Below are positions 5,308 to 32,270 of a DNA stretch of 64,000 bases, piece by piece. A program made the translations under genes and the position numbers. The stretch is from Bacteroidales bacterium UBA1402 (lineage in GTDB: Bacteria; Bacteroidota; Bacteroidia; Bacteroidales; UBA1402). The notes beneath the pieces were generated by a model, which had not been told where the DNA came from, did not search any database, and was given only the letters and a program-made list of their open reading frames with translations. The first letter of the stretch is position 1; each line of letters starts with the position of its first letter. Location: positions 20,835 to 84,834 of the forward strand of contig DBQE01000009.1 of NCBI GenBank assembly GCA_002305085.1. The letters are read 5' to 3'.

Positions 5308-5507
5308 AACAGTACATGTTTTGCTTATTGCGATTAATAACCTGCATTAGTAACAAATCCTGTGTACTTATGCAAAAAAAACGATAGACGAAGATAAGTT
5401 TTTTTTGGGAATTACAAGCGACAAGATCCTAAATAAAGAGCAAAAAGAATATGTTTTACATCATCTTTTAGCCTGTTTTTGGCCGGTTTGCTCTTTATGG
5501 CGGGGAT

Positions 5508-5540
5508 TTTGTTGACAATTGCAGAATTTTAGTACTTTTG
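5508..5540 (+). promoter_or_regulatory. Bacteroidetes-type promoter (-33 TTTG 5508-5511, -7 TACTTTTG 5533-5540)
   Basis: Matches TTTG-N21-TAnnTTTG. The box ends 39 nt upstream of ATG 5580. Confidence 0.55.
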
Positions 5541-5579
5541 CATTCTCATTTTATACATTTACTCACGACACTCCGCACT

Positions 5580-6659: not shown

Positions 6660-8411
6660 CTACAGACCCAAAGATTTCATTATCTTCTTAAATTTTTCTT
6701 CGGCCAACTTGCATTTGGCGGGATATTCAGAGTGCGATTTCAACACATCGCGTACTTCGATGTAAAATTTAATCTTAGGTTCCGTACCCGAAGGACGTAT
6801 AGACACCTTTGTTCCGTCCAGGCTGAAGTATTGTAACACATTGGAGGTTTCCGGCATTTTAAGATCAAAACTTTCTCCGCTTTCAGGCTTATAAGCTTTC
6901 AGGCCCATATAATCCTTAACCAAAATTACCGGAGAACCCGCCAGTTCATTCACCGGCTTGGATCTAAAATTGTCCATCATGGACTTGATTTGTTCAGCTC
7001 CCGATTTCCCTTTTTTAACAACGGAAATGCCTTTCTCTCTCGAAAAACCGTATTCCATGTAAATATCCAGCAACAATTCATACAAGCTTTTCCCTTGTTC
7101 TTTGGCCCAAGCAAGTATTTCGGCCATCAAAGCACAGGACGAAACAGCGTCTTTGTCGCGAACAAAATCCTGAGGCAGGAAGCCATAACTTTCCTCACCT
7201 CCGCCTATGTATTGCCGTTTACCTTCGAATTCCCTGATTACAGCCGCTATCCATTTAAAGCCGGTATACGTGTCAAACATATCCACCTTATGCCTGTCGG
7301 CAATTTCTTTGATCAATTCGGTAGTAACTATGGTTTTGACAATAAACTCCTTGCCGCTTTCGAGCATCCCCAGCTCGGAACGTCTTTTAATCAGGTAGTA
7401 GATAAAGATAAGGGCGGTCTGATGTCCGTTGACCAGCATCCATTCTTCCCGGTCGTTTTTGATCGCTATTCCGAGGCGGTCGGAATCCGGATCGGAAGCC
7501 ATTACAATATCGGCATCTACTTCGGCCGCTCTTTTCAGCGCCAACGACAAAGCTGCCGGTTCTTCGGGATTGGGCGAAACAACCGTAGGAAAGTCCCCGC
7601 TGACCACATCCTGTTCGGGCACATTGATGATGTTTTTGAAACCAAAAGCCCGGAGACAAGCAGGAATAATTCTGACACCGGTACCGTGAATGGGTGTATA
7701 TACTATTTTCAGGTCTTCGTGTTTTCGAATGGCCTCGGGCGATAGAGAAATGGTCTTGATCTGTTTAATGTATTTCTCATCGATCTCGGCGCCAATCAAC
7801 TTAATGAGTTCCTTATTTCCCTCAAAGCGGACAGAGCTGATATCCTTGATAGCCTGTACTTCGTTAATGATATTGTGATCGTGAGGAGGCACCACCTGAG
7901 CCCCGTCGTCCCAATAAGCTTTATAACCGTTGTATTCCTTAGGATTGTGCGAAGCCGTCAATATAACTCCGCTCTGGCATTTCAGATGACGTATGGCAAA
8001 AGACACTTCGGGGGTGGGACGTAAATCGTCGAATAAATACACATAAATGCCGTTGGCCGAAAATACGTCGGCACAGATTTCTGCAAAAAAACGGCTGTTG
8101 TTTCTGCAATCGTACCCGATTACCACAGAGATCCGGGGCAAGTGAGCAAAAGATTTATTCAGATAATTGGCCAAGCCCTGAGTGGCGGCTCCAACTGTGT
8201 ACTGATTCACTCTGTTGCTGCCGGGTCCCATTATTCCACGTAGCCCACCTGTACCGAATTCCAGGTCCTTGTAAAAAGATTCAATTAATTCTGTTTTATC
8301 TTCCTTATCAAGCATAGCTTGAACTGCAGCCCTGGTTTGCTCATCGTAATCCTCTGTCAGCCAACGCTTGGCTTTGGCTGTGACTTCTTTTATCAACTGT
8401 CTGTTTTCCAT
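6660..8411 (-). CDS. pgm: Phosphoglucomutase / phosphomannomutase (PgcA-type, alpha-D-phosphohexomutase)
   Basis: 583 aa. Phosphoserine loop TASHNPKEYNGYK, metal loop ASDPDSDR and sugar loop GGEESYG. Confidence 0.9.
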   Translation of the reverse strand: MENRQLIKEVTAKAKRWLTEDYDEQTRAAVQAMLDKEDKTELIESFYKDLEFGTGGLRGIMGPGSNRVNQYTVGAATQGLANYLNKSFAHLPRISVVIGYDCRNNSRFFAEICADVFSANGIYVYLFDDLRPTPEVSFAIRHLKCQSGVILTASHNPKEYNGYKAYWDDGAQVVPPHDHNIINEVQAIKDISSVRFEGNKELIKLIGAEIDEKYIKQIKTISLSPEAIRKHEDLKIVYTPIHGTGVRIIPACLRAFGFKNIINVPEQDVVSGDFPTVVSPNPEEPAALSLALKRAAEVDADIVMASDPDSDRLGIAIKNDREEWMLVNGHQTALIFIYYLIKRRSELGMLESGKEFIVKTIVTTELIKEIADRHKVDMFDTYTGFKWIAAVIREFEGKRQYIGGGEESYGFLPQDFVRDKDAVSSCALMAEILAWAKEQGKSLYELLLDIYMEYGFSREKGISVVKKGKSGAEQIKSMMDNFRSKPVNELAGSPVILVKDYMGLKAYKPESGESFDLKMPETSNVLQYFSLDGTKVSIRPSGTEPKIKFYIEVRDVLKSHSEYPAKCKLAEEKFKKIMKSLGL

Positions 8412-8423
8412 AGCTTATTTGTA

Positions 8424-10229
8424 TTATTCTGCGTTAAACATCCACTCCCTGTAATTTTCATTGCCACACTTATCCTTTACATAAATCTGCAAAAGATTGC
8501 CCACCGGCAACAAACCAATCCGCTCGTCTTTTAAATCGGCCGTCAAGGTATTGGTCTTGTAATCGTATTCAAACAAAACCCACTTAGCGTTGATAGTACA
8601 GCGGTAAGTGTCTAAGCCCGATTCATCGTCACGGACAAGTATGCGAATTAAAGTATTATTTTGGTTCTTTTCAAGTTGAGGATGAAAAATTTTTGGAGGC
8701 AGACTGTCGCCTAATACGACATAATTCCCAAAGTTCAGGATTTCACCTTCCATAAAACCCTCTGTATATGTTGCTTCTATATATTCTATCTTATTATTGG
8801 ATAATATTCTGACCAGATAGTAGCGATTCTTTTCACTTAAAATGTCGTCGTTAATCTTTATACGGATAAACGCCGCCTGATGCAGCGGAACAGTGGGATG
8901 GTGAATTTTGTGTACACCCGTGTATAAACGATGATTTCTGAGCCCGGGATTCTTAACATTCTTCGGAGGTGTATAATCGTACTCGAAAGCCAGCTTATTG
9001 TAAAACGAAGCTACCGGAAACTCCAGATATATGTCTTTGGAGGTATAGGTGTTTTTGTATGCCGGATAAAAAAATAAAGCCGTGGTGTCTTCCTGAGGAA
9101 AAGGAAGCTGTTTACCCTGCAATTTAAAACGGTACTCGGCTTTGTTCCCCGATATATCGTACAATTCGTATGTAAAATCGTATTCCCGCTCTTGATTTAC
9201 ATCAATGTGACCGTTGTTGATCTTAACCGGATAAATATCGAGCTTATTGAAAGGCTCCACAAAAGATTTCATAATCCAGGAACGGTTTTGCACCCACTCT
9301 TCATAATCGACCAAGGCATTCAAATAACGGCTTTCCTCGAAAGAAAAGCGGCCTATGTCTTGCTGAAATATTTCTTCACCATCCAGGAATAAGCGAATCC
9401 GGCTCAAACCGTATAGATTGTTGGTGCCGTTCATATAGTTGTAGGCTTTAATACCCAAGCCTATTTTGCCCCAGACCAAGGGTAATTTGCTGTCTGGAGC
9501 TACTGTCCCACCCTGTCCGAACTGTATTATTTCTTTTGCAGACAGCCGTCCGCCGTGATTTAGCAAAATTCCCTGCCCATCAATAGCATAGATGGCCAAG
9601 GCCAACATTTTCGGAGGACTGGTGTCTTTGATGCGATCCTTATACCAAAACATGGGATCGACCGGGTCTTCGGATTCCGTCTGACGAATTTCGAAATGCA
9701 AATGGGGGCCGCCCGAGCTACCTGTATTTCCGCTATACCCTATCAACTCACCGCGCTCAACGGGTATTTGTTCATCGGAAAACAACAAATTCTGCTCATA
9801 AGACTCAGCCGCATATTGGGCCGCTTTAACTATAGAATCCAACCTTGGAGAAAAAGATTCTAAATGCCCGTAAACACTGGTATAACCATTGGGATGATCT
9901 AAATAAACAGCCTTTCCGAATCCTTTTACACGTATGCTGACACGCGAAACAAAAGCCGGAGCTATAGCATATACCGGTTTATCAATCACACCCTGAGTTT
10001 TAAAATCCAGGCCGGAATGAAAGTGATCCTCGCGTAATTCGCCGAAATTGGCACTGAGGTAGGGAGGAATACGTAAGGGTAAATCGAAATAAGAAGGTGA
10101 GATACTGTCCTGCAACCTATGCGACTGCACAAATAAAACAGCTTGCTCCAACAAATCAGCCTTGTCTTTTTGCGCATTAAGAATAAAAGCAACACAAGCC
10201 GACAACACTAATAATGTAAGCCGCTTCAT
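8424..10229 (-). CDS. M23/LytM-family metallopeptidase (large, secreted or lipoprotein)
   Basis: HSGLDFKT and GSSGGPHLHFEIR zinc motifs. N-terminal MKRLTLLVLSAC. ATG at 10229; the track start 10235 is GTG. Confidence 0.85.
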   Translation of the reverse strand: MKRLTLLVLSACVAFILNAQKDKADLLEQAVLFVQSHRLQDSISPSYFDLPLRIPPYLSANFGELREDHFHSGLDFKTQGVIDKPVYAIAPAFVSRVSIRVKGFGKAVYLDHPNGYTSVYGHLESFSPRLDSIVKAAQYAAESYEQNLLFSDEQIPVERGELIGYSGNTGSSGGPHLHFEIRQTESEDPVDPMFWYKDRIKDTSPPKMLALAIYAIDGQGILLNHGGRLSAKEIIQFGQGGTVAPDSKLPLVWGKIGLGIKAYNYMNGTNNLYGLSRIRLFLDGEEIFQQDIGRFSFEESRYLNALVDYEEWVQNRSWIMKSFVEPFNKLDIYPVKINNGHIDVNQEREYDFTYELYDISGNKAEYRFKLQGKQLPFPQEDTTALFFYPAYKNTYTSKDIYLEFPVASFYNKLAFEYDYTPPKNVKNPGLRNHRLYTGVHKIHHPTVPLHQAAFIRIKINDDILSEKNRYYLVRILSNNKIEYIEATYTEGFMEGEILNFGNYVVLGDSLPPKIFHPQLEKNQNNTLIRILVRDDESGLDTYRCTINAKWVLFEYDYKTNTLTADLKDERIGLLPVGNLLQIYVKDKCGNENYREWMFNAE

Positions 10230-20834: not shown

Positions 20835-20847
20835 ATGTTTTTTTTCG

Positions 20848-22449: not shown

Positions 22450-24690
22450 TTACCTGTCGCGATTTGAATCCGGACGGCGACGACCACCCCTGCCTCTACC
22501 GGCATCGTCGCCTCCCTGACGCTTATCCGGTCTGGGGCGACGCTCCCTTTCGGGGCGTTCTTCGTATCCTTCGGGTTTCTCGAGCAATGCCTTGTGAGAT
22601 AATTTGAATTTTCCGGTTTTGGGATCTATGTCGAGCAACTTCACATCTATCTCGTCCCCTTCTTGCAGTCCGGCTTCTTCAATAGCTTCCAGGCGCTTCC
22701 AGGTAATCTCGGAAATATGCAGTAATCCGTCTTTTCCGGGCATAAATTCAACAAAGGCTCCATATGGCATGATGGAACGGACTTTACCCCGGTAAACTTC
22801 TCCGGGTTCCGGCATAGCCACAATGCTTTTAATTTTCATTATGGCGGCGTCTATACTGGCTTTGTTGACGGCAGCAATTTCTACCCTACCCTGGTTGTCA
22901 ATCTCATCAATAGTAATGATGGCACCGGTTTCTTCCTGCATTCCCTGAATAATCTTTCCACCCGGGCCAATAACTGCACCAATAAATTCTTTGGGTATCC
23001 ACATAAGTTCAATGCGAGGCGCATTGGGTTTGAGTTCGGGGCGGGGAGCCGGCATAGTTTCAGTAATCTTACCGAGGATATGCATACGGCCTTCGCGAGC
23101 CTGCATCAAAGCCTTTTCCAGTATTTCGTAAGGCAGTCCGTCCACTTTGATATCCATTTGAGTAGCCGTAATGCCGTCCTTGGTTCCTGTTACCTTAAAA
23201 TCCATGTCTCCCAAATGGTCTTCGTCTCCCAAAATATCCGACAAGATGGCGAATTTTTTGTTATCGGTAATGAGCCCCATGGCAATACCGGAAACCGGTT
23301 TCTTTATAGGTACCCCTGCATCCATCAGGGCCAGGGTTCCGGCACATACCGTAGCCATGGACGAAGAACCGTTCGACTCCAAAATATCGGAAACCACGCG
23401 GATTACATAGGGATATTCTTCGGGTAACATTCTTTTCAAGGCACGATGGGCCAAATTGCCGTGACCGATCTCGCGACGTCCCACCCCGCGGCTGGCACGG
23501 GCTTCGCCAGTTGAAAAGGGAGGAAAGTTATAATGTAACAGAAATCTTTCGGTGCTTTGGTTCAGAGCATCGTCTACAATTTTTTCGTCCAGTTTGGTTC
23601 CCAGAGTAACCGAAGTGAGCGATTGGGTTTCCCCACGAGTAAAAATGGCAGAACCATGACAGCCGGGTAGACAATCTATTTCTGACCAAATGGGGCGAAT
23701 TTCTGTGGTCGTTCTGCCATCCAGGCGTTTGCCTTCGTCAAGAATACTGCGACGCATGGCTTCTTTTTCCACTTCATGGTAATAACGGGAAATCATCTCG
23801 GCTTTTTCCAAAGCTGTTTCTTCGTCCATAGCGGCTATATATTCTTCGTATATCGCCTTGAAGTTGGCTTCTCTCTGATGTTTGTCGGGATTGGCCGAAG
23901 TGGCTTCTGCGTAAGCCTTGGCATAAGTTTTATCCCAAATATCCTTGCGCAACTCTTCGTCGTTTTCTTCGTGACAATACTCGCGTTTAACGGTTTTACC
24001 GGCCAATTCAGCCAACTCAAGCTGGGCACGGCATTGGACTTTGATAGCTTCGTGTGCAATTTTGAGTGCCTCGAGCAAATCACTTTCTTGCACCTCGCTC
24101 ATCTCTCCTTCAACCATCATGATATTCTCCAGAGTGGCACCTACCACAATATCCATGTCGGCTTTTTTGAGTTCAGCCGAAGTGGGATTCAATTTAAATT
24201 GTCCGTCAATACGAGCTATGCGGACTTCTGAAATGGGACCGTTAAAAGGAATATCCGAAACAGCCAAAGCTGCCGAGGCAGCCAGCCCGGCCAAAGCATC
24301 GGGCATATCTCCGTTGCAGTCGTTATCGGCAGAAAAAAGGATCACGTTAACAATGGTATTGGCGTGAAAATCTGCGGGAAACAAGGGGCGTAAAGCCCGG
24401 TCGACTAAGCGTGAGGTCAAAATTTCAGAATCTGAGGGACGTCCCTCTCTTTTAAGAAAACCGCCGGGAAAACGTCCCGAGGAGGCGAATTTTTCTCTGT
24501 ATTCAACCTGTAAAGGCATAAAATCGGTTCCGGGAACTGCTTCTTTGTCGGCACAAACAGTAGCCAGCAATACAATATTGTTCATGCGGACAACTACAGA
24601 GCCGTCTGCCTGTTTGGCTAATTTACCGGTTTCAATGGTAATGGTCCTTCCATCACCCAATTCAATTGTTTTGACAATCGGTGTCATCAT
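22450..24690 (-). CDS. pnp: Polyribonucleotide nucleotidyltransferase (PNPase)
   Basis: Two RNase PH-like halves, a KH domain and an S1 domain ([15 protein letters not shown]), with an R/G-rich tail. The N-terminus [31 protein letters not shown] matches the usual PNPase start. In-frame ATGs also occur at 24726 and 24687, so the start is ambiguous. Confidence 0.93.
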
Positions 24691-24755
24691 AAAAATTTTC
24701 TTTAAATTGTCTCTGTGGGCCTTCATCGCCCATTTTAATCACTATAAAAATCCCG

Positions 24756-26703: not shown

Positions 26704-26837
26704 TGAATACGACTGCTTTGTTAATCATGCTGAGTTCACAGATTGGTGTCAGTCTGTTTCTGGCCTATTTTTTGTACCGGATATTTAAAGCCCGGGGCGA
26801 TAAATCTAAACAGAATCGCTCCCAAAATAGCGCATGA
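26703..26837 (+). CDS. Small single-TM ORF, candidate MetS-like NSS transporter small subunit
   Basis: 44 aa: MNTTALLIMLSSQIGVSLFLAYFLYRIFKARGDKSKQNRSQNSA. Its ATG overlaps the transporter TAA (TAATG at 26701-26705). It is below the 60-aa cutoff of the ORF track. Its 3' end overlaps the convergent LytTR gene by 32 nt. Confidence 0.45.
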   Translation: MNTTALLIMLSSQIGVSLFLAYFLYRIFKARGDKSKQNRSQNSA

Positions 26838-27669
26838 CCTTTTGTGAATACCCTTTGGAAACAGGAATGGATTTAACCTTTTCCGAATCAAGGTCAATGT
26901 AAATACCTTCTTTTTCTTTGCGGATTACCTTTACCTTGTCCGAATTGATAATATAGGATCGGTGACAACGCATCAATGAGCTGTTAGCAAAACTTTCCTC
27001 TATGGTTTTGAGCTTACAACGCAATAAATAATTGCACATGGCACCTTTGTTCATGTAGTACACCTTAATGTAATTGTCGTGTGATTCTATATAATAAAGA
27101 TTATCCAGTTTTATGGACAGTTTCAGATTGCCATAATTATCGGTCAAATGGATCAATTCCTTGTCTTTGTTAGCCAATTCATCGTCGGAGACAAAATCTT
27201 TATAATTGAGCAAGCGCAAAGTTCTGTTTTTATCGTTCAGTGCACAATACAAAATAGAAATCGTGTCAGGTATAATCAGGATTACCGAAGTATATAAAAA
27301 TGCCCGGGGGAAAACAGTCCAAAAAGAAGCATCCGTTTGTTCGATAAAGGTAATGGTGACAAAGGTGTAAAGCGTGGTTATCAGTACAATCTCGGCAAAC
27401 AACCAAACGAAAAAACCTAAGAAAGTAAGTTTGAACCACTTTTTACTGTTGAATACCAAGATTCTGCTTAAGATTAAAATCAATGTCGATGCAGCCAAAA
27501 CACCTACGGTGAAGAAAAAAAAGTCGGATTTTCCCAAATCAAACCAGGCTGTGGACGAAAAAGGGGTATAAATATTTAAAAAAATGATGGAAAAAAGTAT
27601 TGTAAACAGCAAAGACCCAAGTATTTGGTTCTTTTGCAACAGGTATGAGGGTACTTTTTGAGTGATCAT
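26806..27669 (-). CDS. Membrane-anchored LytTR-domain DNA-binding protein (4 TM + LytTR)
   Basis: ATG at 27669; the track start 27702 is TTG. Four N-terminal hydrophobic helices. C-terminal LytTR pattern: LYYIESHDNYIKVYY...LKTIEESF...LMRCHRSYIINSDKV. Confidence 0.8.
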   Translation of the reverse strand: MITQKVPSYLLQKNQILGSLLFTILFSIIFLNIYTPFSSTAWFDLGKSDFFFFTVGVLAASTLILILSRILVFNSKKWFKLTFLGFFVWLFAEIVLITTLYTFVTITFIEQTDASFWTVFPRAFLYTSVILIIPDTISILYCALNDKNRTLRLLNYKDFVSDDELANKDKELIHLTDNYGNLKLSIKLDNLYYIESHDNYIKVYYMNKGAMCNYLLRCKLKTIEESFANSSLMRCHRSYIINSDKVKVIRKEKEGIYIDLDSEKVKSIPVSKGYSQKVMRYFGSDSV

Positions 27670-27709
27670 TTTATCCTGTTTTTGAGCTAATGCAATCAAC
27701 AAACAGAGA

Positions 27710-27717
27710 CAAATGTA
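27710..27717 (-). promoter_or_regulatory. -7 box (CAAATGTA on + strand) for the LytTR gene
   Basis: 40 nt upstream of ATG 27669. Confidence 0.45.
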
Positions 27718-27723
27718 AAAACT

Positions 27724-27799
27724 ATTTGGTCACAAATAGCAAGATTTGGCCACCGATATTCATGTTTTCGCCACATTTCCGTTTTTATTCACCACATAA
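27724..27799. promoter_or_regulatory. Four phased direct repeats (putative LytTR operator array)
   Basis: TTGGTCACA at 27726, TTGGCCACC at 27746, TTCGCCACA at 27767 and TTCACCACA at 27788. Start-to-start spacing is 20, 21 and 21 bp. Invariant positions are TT---CAC. Confidence 0.5.
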
Positions 27800-27825
27800 A
27801 CTTGGCCGGGAGCCCATATCAGAGC

Positions 27826-27833
27826 TACATTTG
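27826..27833 (+). promoter_or_regulatory. -7 box TACATTTG for the fab operon
   Basis: 26 nt upstream of the fabH ATG (27860). Confidence 0.5.
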
Positions 27834-27859
27834 CGGCCTCAAATTCATGGAAATTAAAA

Positions 27860-28819
27860 ATGAAAATTATAGGAACCGGGAGTTCTTCTCCCTCCCTAAC
27901 CGTCAGCAACGATATGCTGGCCACATTTTTGGATACCAGCGATGAGTGGATCCAAACCAGAACAGGAATAAAAACCAGACAAGTTATTTCGACGGAGCGA
28001 CTGGAAGATTTGGCAGCGCAAGCTTGCTCAATAGCAATTCACGAAGCAGGCATTAAGGCAGAAGATTTAGATTATATCATTTGCTCCAACACACTCAATG
28101 AATACGTGACTCCTGCGCTGAGCTGTATTCTTCAGGGTATGCTGGGAGCCGATTGCCCTTGTATCGACCTTAATGGAGCCTGCGCCGGTTTCATTTACGC
28201 ACTGGATATGGCTGACGCCTTGTTCGAAAGGGGCAACATGGAACATATTCTGGTTGTTTGCGCCGAAGAACCCACCCGCATGGTGGATTGGACCAAACGC
28301 GACACTTGCGTCCTTTTCGGGGATGGAGCCGGAGCTGTAGTCCTTGGTAAAGGGGAAGGTTTTAAATCTTTCAAACTTTCCACTTTCAGCAATACCGAAG
28401 CCTTGTATCAAATCCGCAAATTGCAGGATACACCTTTTATAAAAAGGGAAGAAACAGAAGGAAACGATGCATTGGTAATGAAGGGACAGGACGTTTTTAA
28501 ATTGGCGGTAAACTGTTCTCTGAACGATATCAAAGATGTCTTGAAACTGGCAGGGGTCAAAGCGGACGAGATCGATCATTATTTGCTGCACCAGGCAAAC
28601 ATGAGAATTCTCGACACAATAATGAGGTATTTGGGGCAAAGCGAAAAAAACTTTCCCCACAACATTGAACGCTACGGAAATACCTCGTCGGCCAGCATTC
28701 CCATGTTGCTCGACGAATTGAATAAAAATAATAAATTAAAAACCGGACAAAAACTGGTTTTCAGTGCTTTCGGAGCAGGTTTCACCACGGGTGCCTGTCT
28801 GCTGGAATGGACTATGTAA
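27860..28819 (+). CDS. fabH: 3-oxoacyl-ACP synthase III
   Basis: 319 aa. Cys-His-Asn triad contexts NGACAGF, LLHQANMRI and YGNTSSASIP. Confidence 0.9.
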   Translation: MKIIGTGSSSPSLTVSNDMLATFLDTSDEWIQTRTGIKTRQVISTERLEDLAAQACSIAIHEAGIKAEDLDYIICSNTLNEYVTPALSCILQGMLGADCPCIDLNGACAGFIYALDMADALFERGNMEHILVVCAEEPTRMVDWTKRDTCVLFGDGAGAVVLGKGEGFKSFKLSTFSNTEALYQIRKLQDTPFIKREETEGNDALVMKGQDVFKLAVNCSLNDIKDVLKLAGVKADEIDHYLLHQANMRILDTIMRYLGQSEKNFPHNIERYGNTSSASIPMLLDELNKNNKLKTGQKLVFSAFGAGFTTGACLLEWTM

Positions 28820-28830
28820 GACGATTTAAT

Positions 28831-29781
28831 ATGATTAAAACTCGAATAAATACCTTACTGGGAATTGAGTTTCCCATTTTGCAGGGGGGCATGGCCTGGA
28901 TTTCAGAATCCAACCTGGCCTCAGCTGTTTCCAATGCCGGAGGTTTGGGGCAAATTTCCTCGATCAATGCCGGTGTCGATGTCGTGAGACAGGAAATTCG
29001 TAAATGCAAAGCAAAAACTTCCAGGCCTTTTGGTGTCAATATAATGCTTATGAGCCCGATTGCCGACGATATTGCCCAAATGGTCATAGAAGAAGAGGTT
29101 CCGGTGGTGACCACCGGAGCCGGTATGCCCGGTAAATATATGAGCGACTGGCTAAATGCCGGTATTAAAGTGATTCCCGTTGTTTCCTCATCGGCCATAG
29201 CCAAACGCATGGAAAATATGGGAGCCTGCGCTGTGATTGCAGAGGGAGGAGAATCGGGAGGACATATCGGCGAAATCAACACTATGGCTTTGGTCCCGCA
29301 AGTATGCAACGCTGTGAGCATCCCAGTGATAGCTGCCGGAGGAATCGCCGACGGCAGGGGTTTTGCCGCCGTACTTATGCTGGGGGCCGAGGGGGTGCAA
29401 TGCGGAACACGCTTTCTGCTTTCCTCGGAATGCATAATCCACGAAAATTACAAAAATAAACTTCTGGCCGCCAAAGATTCAGACACTATCGTCACAGGCA
29501 AAAGCCTGGGACATCCCGTTCGTTCCCTTAAGACTCCCTTTTCCAGGAAGTTTGCCGAAATGGAAAAAGATCCTACCTTTACCACTAAAGACATTATGGA
29601 TTTTGGCACAGGATCGCTTAGAAAAGCTGTACAAGAAGGAGATCAATTAATGGGCAGCTATATGGCAGGACAATGCGTAGGAATGGTCAAGGATATTCTT
29701 CCGGCAAAACAAATTATCGAAGAACTTGTTCATGATGCAAAGCATCTTTTGTCAAATACCAATAAATGGATGGAAAAATGA
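28831..29781 (+). CDS. fabK: Enoyl-ACP reductase II (FMN-dependent, NPD/nitronate-monooxygenase fold)
   Basis: The start MIKTRINTLLGIEFPILQGGMAW matches the FabK N-terminus as I remember it. AEGGESGGHIG is present. An alternative ATG at 28807 would overlap fabH. Confidence 0.85.
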   Translation: MIKTRINTLLGIEFPILQGGMAWISESNLASAVSNAGGLGQISSINAGVDVVRQEIRKCKAKTSRPFGVNIMLMSPIADDIAQMVIEEEVPVVTTGAGMPGKYMSDWLNAGIKVIPVVSSSAIAKRMENMGACAVIAEGGESGGHIGEINTMALVPQVCNAVSIPVIAAGGIADGRGFAAVLMLGAEGVQCGTRFLLSSECIIHENYKNKLLAAKDSDTIVTGKSLGHPVRSLKTPFSRKFAEMEKDPTFTTKDIMDFGTGSLRKAVQEGDQLMGSYMAGQCVGMVKDILPAKQIIEELVHDAKHLLSNTNKWMEK

Positions 29782-31004
29782 AAAGAGTTGTAATTACCGG
29801 CATGGGAGCCATCTCTCCTGTCGGAAACGATATCCCCACATTTTGGAATAATCTTAAAAACGGAGTCTGCGGAATCGATACTATCCGCAGTTTTTCCACC
29901 GATGATCTGCCGGTAAAGATAGCGGCAGAAGTCAAGGATTTTAAACCGGACTCCTATGGAATAGACGCTGCCACAGCCCGTAAAAACGACCGGTATGCCC
30001 TATTTGCACTAGCCGCCTCCAATCAGGCCATGAAAGACAGCGGTCTTCAAATTGAGCCGGAGCGTCTGGGTGTGTACATAGGATCAGGAATCGGCGGAAT
30101 GAATACCTTTATTGCAGAAACCACCAAAATGATACAAAAAGGCCCGCAATGGATCTCACCGCTTTTTGTGCCAATGATGATATCCAATATTGCCTCGGGC
30201 AATGTCGCCATTGAGCACAACGCACAAGGAGTCTGCCTTCCTATTGTTACAGCCTGTGCCACAGGCACTCACTCCATAGGCGAGGCCTTCAAGGCAATCA
30301 AACACGGCTACGCCGATGCCATCATTACCGGGGGAGCCGAAGCTGCAGTAGTCCCATTGGCTATCGGAGGTTTTGCCAACAGCAGAGCCCTTTCACGCTC
30401 CGAAGACCCCATGCAAGCCTCTCTGCCTTTTGATAAGAGAAGGCAAGGTTTTGTAATCGCCGAAGGTGCCGGCATTCTTGTACTTGAGGAATACGAACAT
30501 GCCCGTGCCAGAGGAGCTAAAATGTACGCTGAAGTGTGCGGTTACGGCAATACCTGCGATGCTTACCACTATACTGCACCCAGACCCGACGGTTCCTCAG
30601 CAGCAAGAGCCATTCGGTTTGCTCTGACTGAAGCCGGTTTTAAAACAGGAGAATTGCTGCACATTAACTCCCACGGAACCGGAACCCCTTTGAACGACAA
30701 ATCGGAAACAGCTGCTATTAAAATAGCTTTGGGCGAAAAGGCCGCCTACAAAGCCATCATCAATTCGACCAAATCCATGACTGGCCATATGTTGGGAGCC
30801 GCCGGAGGAATAGAGCTGATTGCCACAGCTCTGGCTCTGAAAGAGGGTATAATTCCTCCAACAGTACATCTGGATGAACCCGATCCCGAATGCGATCTGG
30901 ATTATACCCCCAATCAGGCTAGAAAAGCCGATATTTCAATTGCTGTTTCCACCTCCCTGGGTTTTGGAGGACACAACGGTTGTATTGCACTTAGAAAAAT
31001 ATAG
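29778..31004 (+). CDS. fabF: 3-oxoacyl-ACP synthase II
   Basis: MKRVVITGMG start, whose ATG overlaps the fabK TGA (ATGA at 29778-29781). Active-site contexts ACATGTHSIG, SHGTGTPLND and GHMLGAAG. Confidence 0.95.
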   Translation: MKRVVITGMGAISPVGNDIPTFWNNLKNGVCGIDTIRSFSTDDLPVKIAAEVKDFKPDSYGIDAATARKNDRYALFALAASNQAMKDSGLQIEPERLGVYIGSGIGGMNTFIAETTKMIQKGPQWISPLFVPMMISNIASGNVAIEHNAQGVCLPIVTACATGTHSIGEAFKAIKHGYADAIITGGAEAAVVPLAIGGFANSRALSRSEDPMQASLPFDKRRQGFVIAEGAGILVLEEYEHARARGAKMYAEVCGYGNTCDAYHYTAPRPDGSSAARAIRFALTEAGFKTGELLHINSHGTGTPLNDKSETAAIKIALGEKAAYKAIINSTKSMTGHMLGAAGGIELIATALALKEGIIPPTVHLDEPDPECDLDYTPNQARKADISIAVSTSLGFGGHNGCIALRKI

Positions 31005-31007
31005 AAC

Positions 31008-31445
31008 ATGAAAAGAGAGGAAATTAAAACGTACATCCCGCACAGGGAACCCATGTTGTTGGTCGATGAAATCAACATCGACGAAAATCACGTTGCACAC
31101 GCCACCTACAAGGTCAGAGGCGATGAATTCTTTTTACAGGGACATTTCCCGGATTTCCCGGTAGTGCCCGGTGTAATCCTGTGCGAAATCATGGCTCAGT
31201 CTTGTTCTCTTCTGGTTGGTGATTTTTTGAAAGGCAAAACCCCTTTCTATGCAGGCATAGATAAAGCCCGCTTCAAATCTTCCGTTTATCCGGGTGATTT
31301 GATAGAAATTACCGCCAAAATTGTGAATCGCCGATCTATGGTCTTTTTTATTGAGGCCGTGGCCAAAGTAAAGGAAAAAATCTGTGTACAGGCCAATTTG
31401 TCCTTTGCCTTGGTCGACAATGCCGATTTGGAACAAAGGAAATAA
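31008..31445 (+). CDS. fabZ: 3-hydroxyacyl-ACP dehydratase (stand-alone)
   Basis: 145 aa. HFPDFPVVPGVILCEIMAQ hot-dog active-site motif. 3-nt gap after fabF. Confidence 0.9.
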   Translation: MKREEIKTYIPHREPMLLVDEINIDENHVAHATYKVRGDEFFLQGHFPDFPVVPGVILCEIMAQSCSLLVGDFLKGKTPFYAGIDKARFKSSVYPGDLIEITAKIVNRRSMVFFIEAVAKVKEKICVQANLSFALVDNADLEQRK

Positions 31446-31603: not shown

Positions 31604-31631
31604 CGGTTTTATTTCTCTCTTGCCCCTGCTT

Positions 31632-32270
31632 ATGGAATCCGTCGGCTTTATTCAATGGTGTCTCGATAACTTGAACTATTGGACCATCACCCTTTTGATG
31701 ACGATCGAAAGTTCATTTATACCCTTTCCCTCAGAAGTAGTGGTACCCCCTGCTGCCTATAAAGCCGCCGCCGGGGAACTCAATATTTTCCTGGTCGTAT
31801 TGTTCTCTACTATAGGGGCTTGCCTGGGAGCCGTCATCAATTATTGTCTGGCTCTATGGATAGGCCGCCCGCTGGTGTACAAGTTTGCTGCAAGCCGACT
31901 GGGGCATTTGCTTCTGTTGAGTGAAGCTAAAATCGAAAATGCCGAAAAGTATTTTGTGAAACACGGAATAATCTCAACCCTGATCGGACGCCTGATTCCC
32001 GCCGTAAGACAGCTAATTTCCATCCCCGCCGGCCTGGCAAAAATGAGGTTCGGCATCTTTCTGCTCTTTACCGCCCTTGGGGCAGGTCTCTGGAATGTTA
32101 TTCTTGCCGTAATCGGCTACTCACTCCACGCTGTCGTCCCCAAAGATCAGCTGATGGAAAAGGTGTACGAATACAGCCACGAGATCGGCTATGTTTTTAT
32201 CGGGCTGGGAGTACTGCTGGTTGGTTTCCTTGTTTACAAGTCACAACAAGGCCGGAAAGCCTCCAAATAA
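31632..32270 (+). CDS. DedA/SNARE-associated family membrane protein
   Basis: ATG at 31632; the track start 31620 is TTG. Typical DedA features: ESSFIPFPSEVVVPPA, a GR..P loop (IGRLIPAVRQLISIPAG) and several TMs. Confidence 0.85.
   Translation: MESVGFIQWCLDNLNYWTITLLMTIESSFIPFPSEVVVPPAAYKAAAGELNIFLVVLFSTIGACLGAVINYCLALWIGRPLVYKFAASRLGHLLLLSEAKIENAEKYFVKHGIISTLIGRLIPAVRQLISIPAGLAKMRFGIFLLFTALGAGLWNVILAVIGYSLHAVVPKDQLMEKVYEYSHEIGYVFIGLGVLLVGFLVYKSQQGRKASK

Follow-up and report, generated by a model that had tools for sequence, protein, structure and literature searches.

The window analysed here is a 64,000-nucleotide stretch of the genome of Bacteroidales bacterium UBA1402 (assembly GCA_002305085.1, contig DBQE01000009.1, forward-strand positions 20,835 to 84,834), and all coordinates given for it are positions within the stretch. 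A gene for a LytTR-domain regulator with four transmembrane (TM) helices, referred to as the 4TM-LytTR protein, lies divergent from fabH, the first gene of an operon (fabH-fabK-fabF-fabZ) for type II fatty acid synthesis (FASII), and the DNA between the two genes carries four direct repeats of 9 base pairs (bp), R1 to R4. These repeats are non-random, conserved, strand-specific, phased with the DNA helix and locked to the fabH promoter, and both the link to FASII genes and the architecture of the protein are observed. Comparison of sequences makes it probable that the repeats are the operator through which the 4TM-LytTR protein controls the fab operon. The features of the locus are as follows; site scores in bits come from the position weight matrix (PWM) described below.

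26806 to 27669, minus strand: gene of the 4TM-LytTR regulator, 287 amino acids (Pfam PF04397, homologues, hydropathy and structural model)
27710 to 27717, minus strand: predicted -7 box of the regulator promoter, TACATTTG, which fits TAnnTTTG
27726 to 27734, plus strand: R1, TTGGTCACA, a weak copy (6.2 bits), kept in the close relative L001
27746 to 27754, plus strand: R2, TTGGCCACC, a weak copy (6.6 bits), 20 bp after R1
27767 to 27775, plus strand: R3, TTCGCCACA, a consensus copy (18.0 bits), 21 bp after R2
27788 to 27796, plus strand: R4, TTCACCACA, the promoter-proximal copy (13.3 bits)
27801 to 27804, plus strand: probable imperfect -33 element of the fabH promoter, CTTG, assigned by its position 21 bp upstream of the -7 box
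27826 to 27833, plus strand: predicted -7 box of the fabH operon, TACATTTG, read from the sequence and conserved across 25 loci
27860 to 28819, plus strand: fabH, beta-ketoacyl-ACP synthase III (NCBIfam NF006829, 334 bits against a cut-off of 249; Pfam ACP_syn_III)
28807 to 29781, plus strand: fabK, enoyl-ACP reductase II (TIGR03151, 444.6 bits, just below the cut-off of 453.1; Pfam NMO)
29766 to 31004, plus strand: fabF, beta-ketoacyl-ACP synthase II (TIGR03150, 569 bits against a cut-off of 494)
31008 to 31445, plus strand: fabZ, 3-hydroxyacyl-ACP dehydratase, the last gene of the conserved cluster (NF000582, 122 bits against a cut-off of 113)

Start to start, the repeats are 20, 21 and 21 bp apart, with spacers of 11, 12 and 12 bp. 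R4 occupies roughly -49 to -41, with 29 bp separating its end from the fabH -7 box. On the other side, 8 bp separate R1 from the regulator -7 box, which places R1 in the stretch that parts the -7 from the -33 region of that promoter. TAnnTTTG is the Bacteroides -7 consensus as used in PMC6193735. A first-pass annotation made from the letters of the sequence had described four same-strand 9-mers with this spacing, both -7 boxes and an array ending about 30 bp upstream of the fabH box, and all of these were found in place. The four repeats that it described are real but unequal, R3 and R4 being consensus-like and R1 and R2 weak. Its caveat that statistical significance was unproven was answered by a shuffled control: when the intergenic region was shuffled 20,000 times with dinucleotides preserved, no shuffle gave a chain of four TTNNNCAC matches at 20 to 22 bp, and chains never exceeded two members (reached in 64 shuffles). 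In the actual 64 kb, R1 to R4 are the sole chain with at least three members. For the degenerate consensus TTSRYCACM, 8.7 matches are expected in the window and 16 occur; four lie within the 71-bp array and the others are isolated. Tandem Repeats Finder reported no array at the repeats and the spacers are unrelated, so these are discrete sites and not a tandem duplication; an Rfam scan of 27400 to 28100 gave no match at E <= 1, which argues that no RNA element lies behind the conservation.

The regulator gene was taken to start at the ATG at 27669 and not at the upstream TTG at 27702, since homologues start at the equivalent residue. Its LytTR domain (amino acids 185 to 281) matches Pfam PF04397 with E = 7e-16 and 58.6 bits against a cut-off of 22.6, and is the sole Pfam domain of the protein, which has no match to the receiver domain Response_reg (REC) in Pfam, no MHYT motifs in its sequence and no Pfam MHYT domain. 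The BtsR equivalog model reached 32 bits against a cut-off of 246, matching the LytTR part alone. Four hydrophobic helices (about amino acids 16 to 36, 50 to 72, 79 to 103 and 122 to 144) fill the N-terminal 145 amino acids, and hydropathy and charge distribution place the positive charges at the N-terminus and in the loop between helices 2 and 3, which argues for an N-in topology with the C-terminus, and with it the LytTR domain, in the cytoplasm. The AlphaFold model has a mean pLDDT of 75 with a low-confidence linker at amino acids 151 to 169. A Foldseek search with this model retrieved the LytTR domains of a B. cereus protein (3d6w), ComE (4cbv) and AgrA (4g4k and 3bs1) at E values of 2.5e-6 to 3.5e-4, with TM-scores of 0.70 to 0.77 when normalised to the length of these isolated domains, and returned no match for the TM domain. 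The protein is a one-component architecture of four TM helices, a disordered linker and a LytTR domain; hydropathy, model and Foldseek agree on the fusion that had been proposed at first, and the initial gene calls of a LytTR regulator and fabH also held, with FabK, FabF and FabZ following. No co-transcribed partner accompanies the regulator gene in the window, where its 3' neighbour is a convergent SNF-family symporter gene.

Relatives of the regulator number 398 at E <= 1e-5, all of about 280 to 300 amino acids and of the same architecture, and the TM domain is well conserved among them, with W42, F43, S68, W89, E93, Y101 and P134 invariant. A scan of their loci with one genome per species gave 80 loci, all from metagenome-assembled genomes (MAGs) of uncultured Bacteroidales or Bacteroidota. 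FASII genes lie within 4 kb of the regulator relative in 60 of the 80: the regulator gene is divergent from fabH(-K)-F-Z in 30 loci, from fabK in one and from fabF in 23, and in six the fab operon is convergent. The gene order fabH-(K)-F-Z is kept in related loci.

All 31 divergent LytTR-fabH or LytTR-fabK intergenic regions from other species-level Bacteroidales genomes hold two to four copies of a motif with the core TTCRCCACA, while outside the sites and promoter boxes these regions show no sequence conservation and cannot otherwise be aligned. The motif also emerged de novo from k-mer counting, which found TCGCCAC in 25 of 31 fabH-type regions, the window's own included. A PWM built without the window and its near-twin L001 reads ww-T-T-C/T-G/A-C-C-A-C-A-w-w-t. 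A search with TTCRCCACA, a pattern derived from nothing but R3 and R4 of the window, gave 35 matches in the orthologous intergenic regions (11.6 kb of strand-bases) and 7 in the flanks (481 kb), an enrichment of about 190-fold; 23 of 30 loci had a match. In an alignment of 25 loci anchored on the promoter-proximal copy, the site carries 1.58 bits per column, the -7 box 1.62 and the spacers about 0.2. What is conserved is the G+C-rich core CGCCAC, whose C positions carry 2.0, 1.81 and 1.83 bits; the A/T flanks carry 0.35 to 1.0. Together with the shuffled control, this conservation supports the original suggestion that the repeats are LytTR sites and form a control module for fabH, as far as sequence can indicate.

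The geometry of the sites is also constrained. Among 79 strong sites (PWM scores of 10 bits or more), the fab-directed strand has 75 and the opposite one four. Adjacent sites are spaced by 20 bp (the dominant value, seen 18 times and leaving an 11-bp spacer), 31, 40 or 41, 51 or 52, 60 or 61 and 71 bp, which are multiples of a helical repeat (Rayleigh mean resultant R = 0.91 at a period of 10.2 to 10.3 bp). From the end of the proximal copy to TAnnTTTG the distance is 28 bp in 24 loci and 29 bp in three, the window among the latter (27 in total). The anchored alignment of 25 loci gives TTCGCCACAnnnATTTT-N19/20-GTAnTTTTGC, or spelled out, TTCGCCACA-nnn-ATTTT-(19-20 n)-GTAnTTTTGC, such that a conserved ATTTT at the -33 position comes 5 bp after the 9-mer; this element is a full TTTG in only 5 of the 25. 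Farther upstream, a pair of copies 20 bp apart is strongly conserved at 3, 4, 5 or 6 helical turns from the proximal copy, and many loci have a weak partner copy at -20/-21 of the proximal one, visible as a small bump of information. The ancestral layout is thus either a set of two pairs or, as seen in the window, four copies in a row. Toward the regulator gene, its CAAAnnTA box is 5 to 8 bp from the first repeat in 14 loci (8 bp in the window), so that a copy lies inside the spacer of the regulator promoter; the distance is 30 bp in five further loci and 31 bp in one.

From this arrangement we infer binding by the regulator, a sign of regulation at each promoter and a signal. The cytoplasmic LytTR domains would bind the same-strand 9-mers with their TTCRCCACA core, which at 20 to 21 bp apart all lie on one face of the helix, and would probably do so as two dimers, one on R1 and R2 and the other on R3 and R4. 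Regulator at R4, beside an imperfect -33 element and at a distance fixed to the base pair, would recruit RNA polymerase and switch on fabH-fabK-fabF-fabZ. Activation of fabHKFZ is the sign that we moderately favour, with repression a distinctly less likely outcome; dependence on an activator draws weak support from the position of the site clear of the promoter elements and from the scarcity of a full TTTG at -33. The distal pair, inside and just upstream of the divergent promoter, would probably repress the regulator's own gene, since R1 sits between the -7 and -33 regions of that promoter. The conserved TM domain would then set the activity of the protein in response to a membrane or lipid cue, for example the state of the bilayer or fatty acids partitioned into the membrane.

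The alternative that survives best keeps the same protein and the same sites and differs in what they do: R1 to R4 would be a repressor operator on which oligomers occlude both divergent promoters, with a membrane signal such as incorporated exogenous fatty acids modulating occupancy (compare FabT, FapR and CoxC). The conserved WWW-ATTTT that follows the 9-mer would let a bound LytTR domain reach the -33 element, and R1 is inside the spacer of the regulator promoter, as such an operator would have it. However, the 9-mer core stops 5 bp upstream of -33, whereas the CoxC operator overlaps its -35 and activating LytTR sites lie 4 to 11 bp upstream, and the -33 element is imperfect in 20 of the 25 loci, as is typical of activator-dependent promoters. 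On balance we hold this explanation to be rather unlikely.

Several points weigh against reading the repeats as an operator for lipid-responsive activation. Two come from precedent: CoxC, the sole characterised membrane-bound LytTR regulator, represses through three direct repeats, and known FASII regulators, FabT for example, are mostly repressors responding to exogenous fatty acids. The carriers are without exception MAGs of uncultured bacteria. The PWM was applied to the very intergenic regions on which it had been trained, a circularity mitigated by the test with the pattern derived from the window. R1 and R2, the distal pair of the window, are degenerate at about 6 bits each, and in the six loci where the distal pair is 30 to 31 bp from the regulator -7 box, autorepression would lack its basis, so it is not general. 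The fab operon is without acpP, fabD and fabG and may therefore be less than the whole FASII set of the cell. A lipid or membrane signal is pure conjecture on our part, possible and somewhat short of an even chance. Finally, 23 more distant relatives of the regulator adjoin fabF across intergenic regions of 50 to 260 bp, and the many short ones (about 50 to 130 bp) are without the repeats and hold two back-to-back promoter boxes, so the operator is not universal in the protein family and gene linkage does not always come with it.

The fabF-type loci have features of their own. The intergenic region between regulator and fabF is about 50 to 75 bp long in L013, L033, L034, L043, L048, L052, L055, L058, L064, L066, L070, L074 and L075; boxes of the TAnnTTTG type stand back to back there, 12 to 13 bp apart where checked (e.g., L033), with no TTCRCCACA repeats. 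The -33 region of each promoter consequently falls within the leader of the other gene. Ten fabF-type loci (L013, L033, L043, L052, L055, L066, L074 to L076 and L078) follow the LytTR gene with a conserved gene for a DUF4293 membrane protein that starts MWQRIQTLY, about 10 to 25 bp after the LytTR stop codon (e.g., L055, 4870 to 4890); in L025 (3547 to 3975) it precedes the LytTR gene. This partner gene was seen with fabF-type relatives only, and its product may be a counterpart of the partner proteins of LytTR regulatory systems (LRS). PWM matches of the form ATGTGGCAAAG after the LytTR gene in fabF-type loci were rejected as a coding artefact, being the start of the DUF4293 gene (ATG TGG CAA AG = MWQR...).

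The protein that binds the array could instead be a different, unlinked factor, for example of the AraC or OmpR type, which also use direct repeats, with the LytTR gene a mere neighbour. The absence of the motif from short fabF-type intergenic regions would fit this, and so would the survival of the array at fabH in loci whose LytTR gene sits elsewhere. L036, L040 and L073 represent a lineage with the regulator gene on the far side of fabZ and convergent to the operon. The fabH upstream regions of these three loci fall beyond the flanks, and the collinear metagenome contigs L086 and L117 (82 to 86% nucleotide identity) stand in for them: their fabH promoters (L086, 1860 to 1990; L117, 515 to 625) have three perfect TTCGCCACA copies and one weak TTGGACACA at the usual position, and have as divergent neighbour a gene for an unrelated secreted protein, with no LytTR gene adjacent. 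The array therefore belongs to the fabH promoter. Even this lineage, however, has its LytTR gene no more than 4 kb away, at the far end of the operon.

The reverse separation, repeats and 4TM-LytTR genes together without fab genes, was also found. A motif-only search of metagenomes for TTCRCCACA-N11/12-TTCRCCACA returned at least 80 loci, which are a sample and not a census of a regulon. Among the matches listed, four of the 80 loci have a LytTR-domain open reading frame (ORF); all four encode 4TM-LytTR proteins, 24 to 28% identical to the window protein, with the repeat pair 0 to 10 bp after the LytTR stop codon and toward the next, non-fab gene. These loci point to a TM-LytTR/TTCRCCACA module that is widespread in Bacteroidota and reaches beyond FASII. 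The pairs in question, of TTCACCACA, are at L089 8178 to 8206, L090 1690 to 1718, L142 2337 to 2365 and L150 4487 to 4516, from marine and other metagenomes; in L089 and L090 the downstream gene encodes a secreted cupin-domain protein of 312 amino acids. Most of the motif-only loci were set aside as coding tandem repeats or lone matches. Several of them (L141, L145, L148, L152, L155 and others) carry multiple copies with a period of 21 or 36 to 42 bp in long arrays, probably unrelated tandem repeats, coding or other.

Distant orthologues (35 to 42% identity) also have pairs of drifted motifs spaced by 20 to 21 bp, such as TTTACCCCW and TTCGTCCCT. In L047 (1558 to 1897) and L077 (3803 to 4001) the regulator gene is divergent from an AMP-binding, long-chain acyl-CoA-synthetase-like gene, and the drifted pairs, 20 bp apart, are TTTACCCCA/TTTACCCCT in the former and TTCGTCCCT twice in the latter; these neighbours are a second link of the family to lipid metabolism. 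In L071 (3780 to 4001) and L080 (3802 to 4001) the divergent neighbour is a DUF6051 gene, and the repeats, about 21 bp apart, belong to the TTTGCCCCA, ATCGTCCCT or TTTACCCCG type. The repeat architecture thus travels and drifts with the protein family. One further locus, L063, has two TTTACCACA copies 22 bp apart on the minus strand (5500 to 5560), downstream of the LytTR gene among small ORFs, with no adjacent fab gene; a fabG-like gene is at 8113 to 8838. The separations of array and regulator gene in both directions argue for the LytTR protein as the binder. With the drifted pairs beside the genes of distant orthologues, the pairs at the four LytTR loci with non-fab neighbours, and a layout of 9-bp repeats with 11- to 12-bp spacers that is itself a LytTR signature, an unlinked factor is very unlikely.

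Still less probable is that the array is structural DNA, phased A/T-rich tracts acting through curvature or as an UP-like element with no dedicated protein. The phasing of about 10.3 bp and the A/T-rich flanks would suit it, but conservation resides in the G+C-rich core CGCCAC and not in those flanks, the strand bias is 75 to 4, and the motif is depleted about 190-fold in flanking DNA and absent from fabF-type promoters. Chance similarity, or a functionless remnant of local duplication, can be dismissed: only five of nine positions are invariant among the four window copies and Tandem Repeats Finder saw no array, yet none of 20,000 shuffles reproduced the chain, the motif is kept in 31 species with unconserved spacers, and its distance to the promoter is fixed.

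No further members of a regulon were found within the 64-kb window. The other strong PWM matches (23699, 28640, 28954, 58800 and 62677, all on the minus strand) are single and were taken as chance, those checked being within ORFs. The match at 23699 is an isolated aaaTTCGCCCCAttt of 17.5 bits with no phased partner, inside a 758-amino-acid ORF (22450 to 24726) that by eye we take to be polynucleotide-phosphorylase-like, and is probably a chance occurrence. Within the operon, fabH and fabK overlap by 13 bp (28807 to 28819) and fabK and fabF by 16 bp (29766 to 29781), which suggests translational coupling. fabZ begins 3 bp after fabF and is followed by a gap of 174 bp and a DedA/VTT (UptA-like) gene at 31620 to 32270.

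Bacteroidota are dominant in gut and rumen microbiota, and the transcriptional control of their membrane-lipid synthesis is essentially undescribed. Our search of the literature, incomplete in coverage, found no paper linking LytTR to FASII in Bacteroidota and no Bacteroidota FASII regulator, in line with the remark in the first-pass annotation that no transcription factor had been defined for these genes. The 4TM-LytTR protein is a strong candidate for such a regulator. The outcome is a testable pair of regulator and putative operator, TTCRCCACA at multiples of about 10.3 bp with the end of the 9-mer 28 bp before TAnnTTTG. The family of this regulator has a conserved membrane domain and shows linkage to fabH, fabF, acyl-CoA-synthetase-like and DUF6051 genes. 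Direct sensing of the bilayer or of fatty acids by the TM domain would be a new logic in bacterial lipid homeostasis, where known systems rely on soluble sensors of acyl-thioesters or malonyl-CoA. More tentatively, the 4TM-LytTR family could be the first dedicated FASII transcription regulator in Bacteroidota and a novel type of sensor for lipid homeostasis: the TM domain with its invariant residues would directly read the state of membrane or lipids, or exogenous fatty acids partitioned into the membrane, and the protein would activate fabHKFZ through a four-site array. It would need no soluble acyl-CoA, acyl-ACP or malonyl-CoA ligand, in which it would differ from all known FASII regulators. 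The recently recognised group of one-component LytTR regulators that sit in the membrane, of which CoxC is the prototype, would thereby gain a new phylum, sensor domain and pathway, and an operator of fixed geometry is a possible regulated promoter part for Bacteroides engineering.

Direct-repeat LytTR operators and the membrane-bound CoxC were known already; what is new, and well supported by the sequence comparisons, is a promoter-locked, putative LytTR array at a FASII operon. The canonical LytTR site consists of 9-bp direct repeats 10 to 13 bp apart, and most LytTR regulators bind upstream of -35 and activate (PMC11347149); in LRS the repeats lie 4 to 11 bp upstream of -35, and some are of the GCCACTTAA or ACCACTTAT type (PMC6193735). 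The array in the window, with 9-bp repeats and 11- to 12-bp spacers just upstream of -33, matches this published layout, as had been proposed at the outset. The accompanying statement that its sequence differs from the LytTR consensus holds against AgrA and ComE, but the motif is not wholly unlike known ones, since RCCACWWWW resembles the GCCACTTAA and ACCACTTAT repeats.

With AgrA, ComE, PlnC and HdrR-BrsR of Firmicutes the window system shares the LytTR fold and imperfect 9-bp direct repeats with 11- to 12-bp spacers and a period of about 21 bp, the proximal repeat a few bp upstream of -35/-33. The likeness extends to agr, where AgrA dimers occupy two repeat pairs between the divergent promoters P2 and P3 (PMC4227749), one of which drives the regulator's own gene. 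The window regulator differs from the AgrA type in having neither a receiver domain nor a histidine kinase and in being itself an integral membrane protein; its motif is TTCRCCACA and not the AgrA/ComE consensus, the promoter is of the Bacteroidetes -33/-7 kind, and the target is fatty acid synthesis rather than quorum sensing or bacteriocins. All copies in the window have one orientation, so the regulator-side pair faces away from the regulator promoter.

CoxC, the prototype of membrane-bound one-component LytTR regulators, is a repressor whose three repeats overlap -35 (PMC11347149). Like the window protein it is a single chain in which a disordered linker joins a multi-pass membrane sensor at the N-terminus to a LytTR domain at the C-terminus, and it too has more than two direct repeats (TTNNNGCN in CoxC, with 12- to 13-bp spacers) at the promoter of an adjacent metabolic operon. 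The sensors are different, that of CoxC having seven TM helices with three MHYT motifs and a role in Cu/CO sensing, whereas that of the window protein has four helices and no MHYT or other Pfam match. The CoxC operator reaches over -35 and CoxC represses, whereas the proximal site in the window stops 5 bp short of -33, and phylum and target pathway differ as well.

An LRS is a two-gene operon in which a LytTR regulator is transcribed together with a membrane inhibitor. LytTR proteins with TM segments are known from Bacteroides, where the motif is another one and a partner gene is present (PMC6193735). LRS and the LRS-like operons of Bacteroides share with the window locus LytTR autoregulation, here putative, through direct repeats, and in B. 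thetaiotaomicron and B. ovatus the LytTR domain is likewise preceded by TM segments and the promoters are of the TAnnTTTG type (PMC6193735). A membrane protein (DUF2154/NfeD) is the partner encoded in those operons, and their 11-bp repeats, TCCGGTATTCA, differ in sequence from those of the window, whereas the window gene is without a partner.

The FASII regulators FapR, FabT, FabR/DesT and FadR offer an analogy of another kind, that of a dedicated factor encoded beside the fab operon that it controls and regulating itself, which the window protein would share if our reading holds. Those regulators are soluble proteins of the helix-turn-helix type, with malonyl-CoA, acyl-ACP or acyl-CoA as their signals and palindromes as their binding sites, whereas the window protein, a member of none of those families, is a beta-fold LytTR protein embedded in the membrane, with phased direct repeats as its predicted sites.

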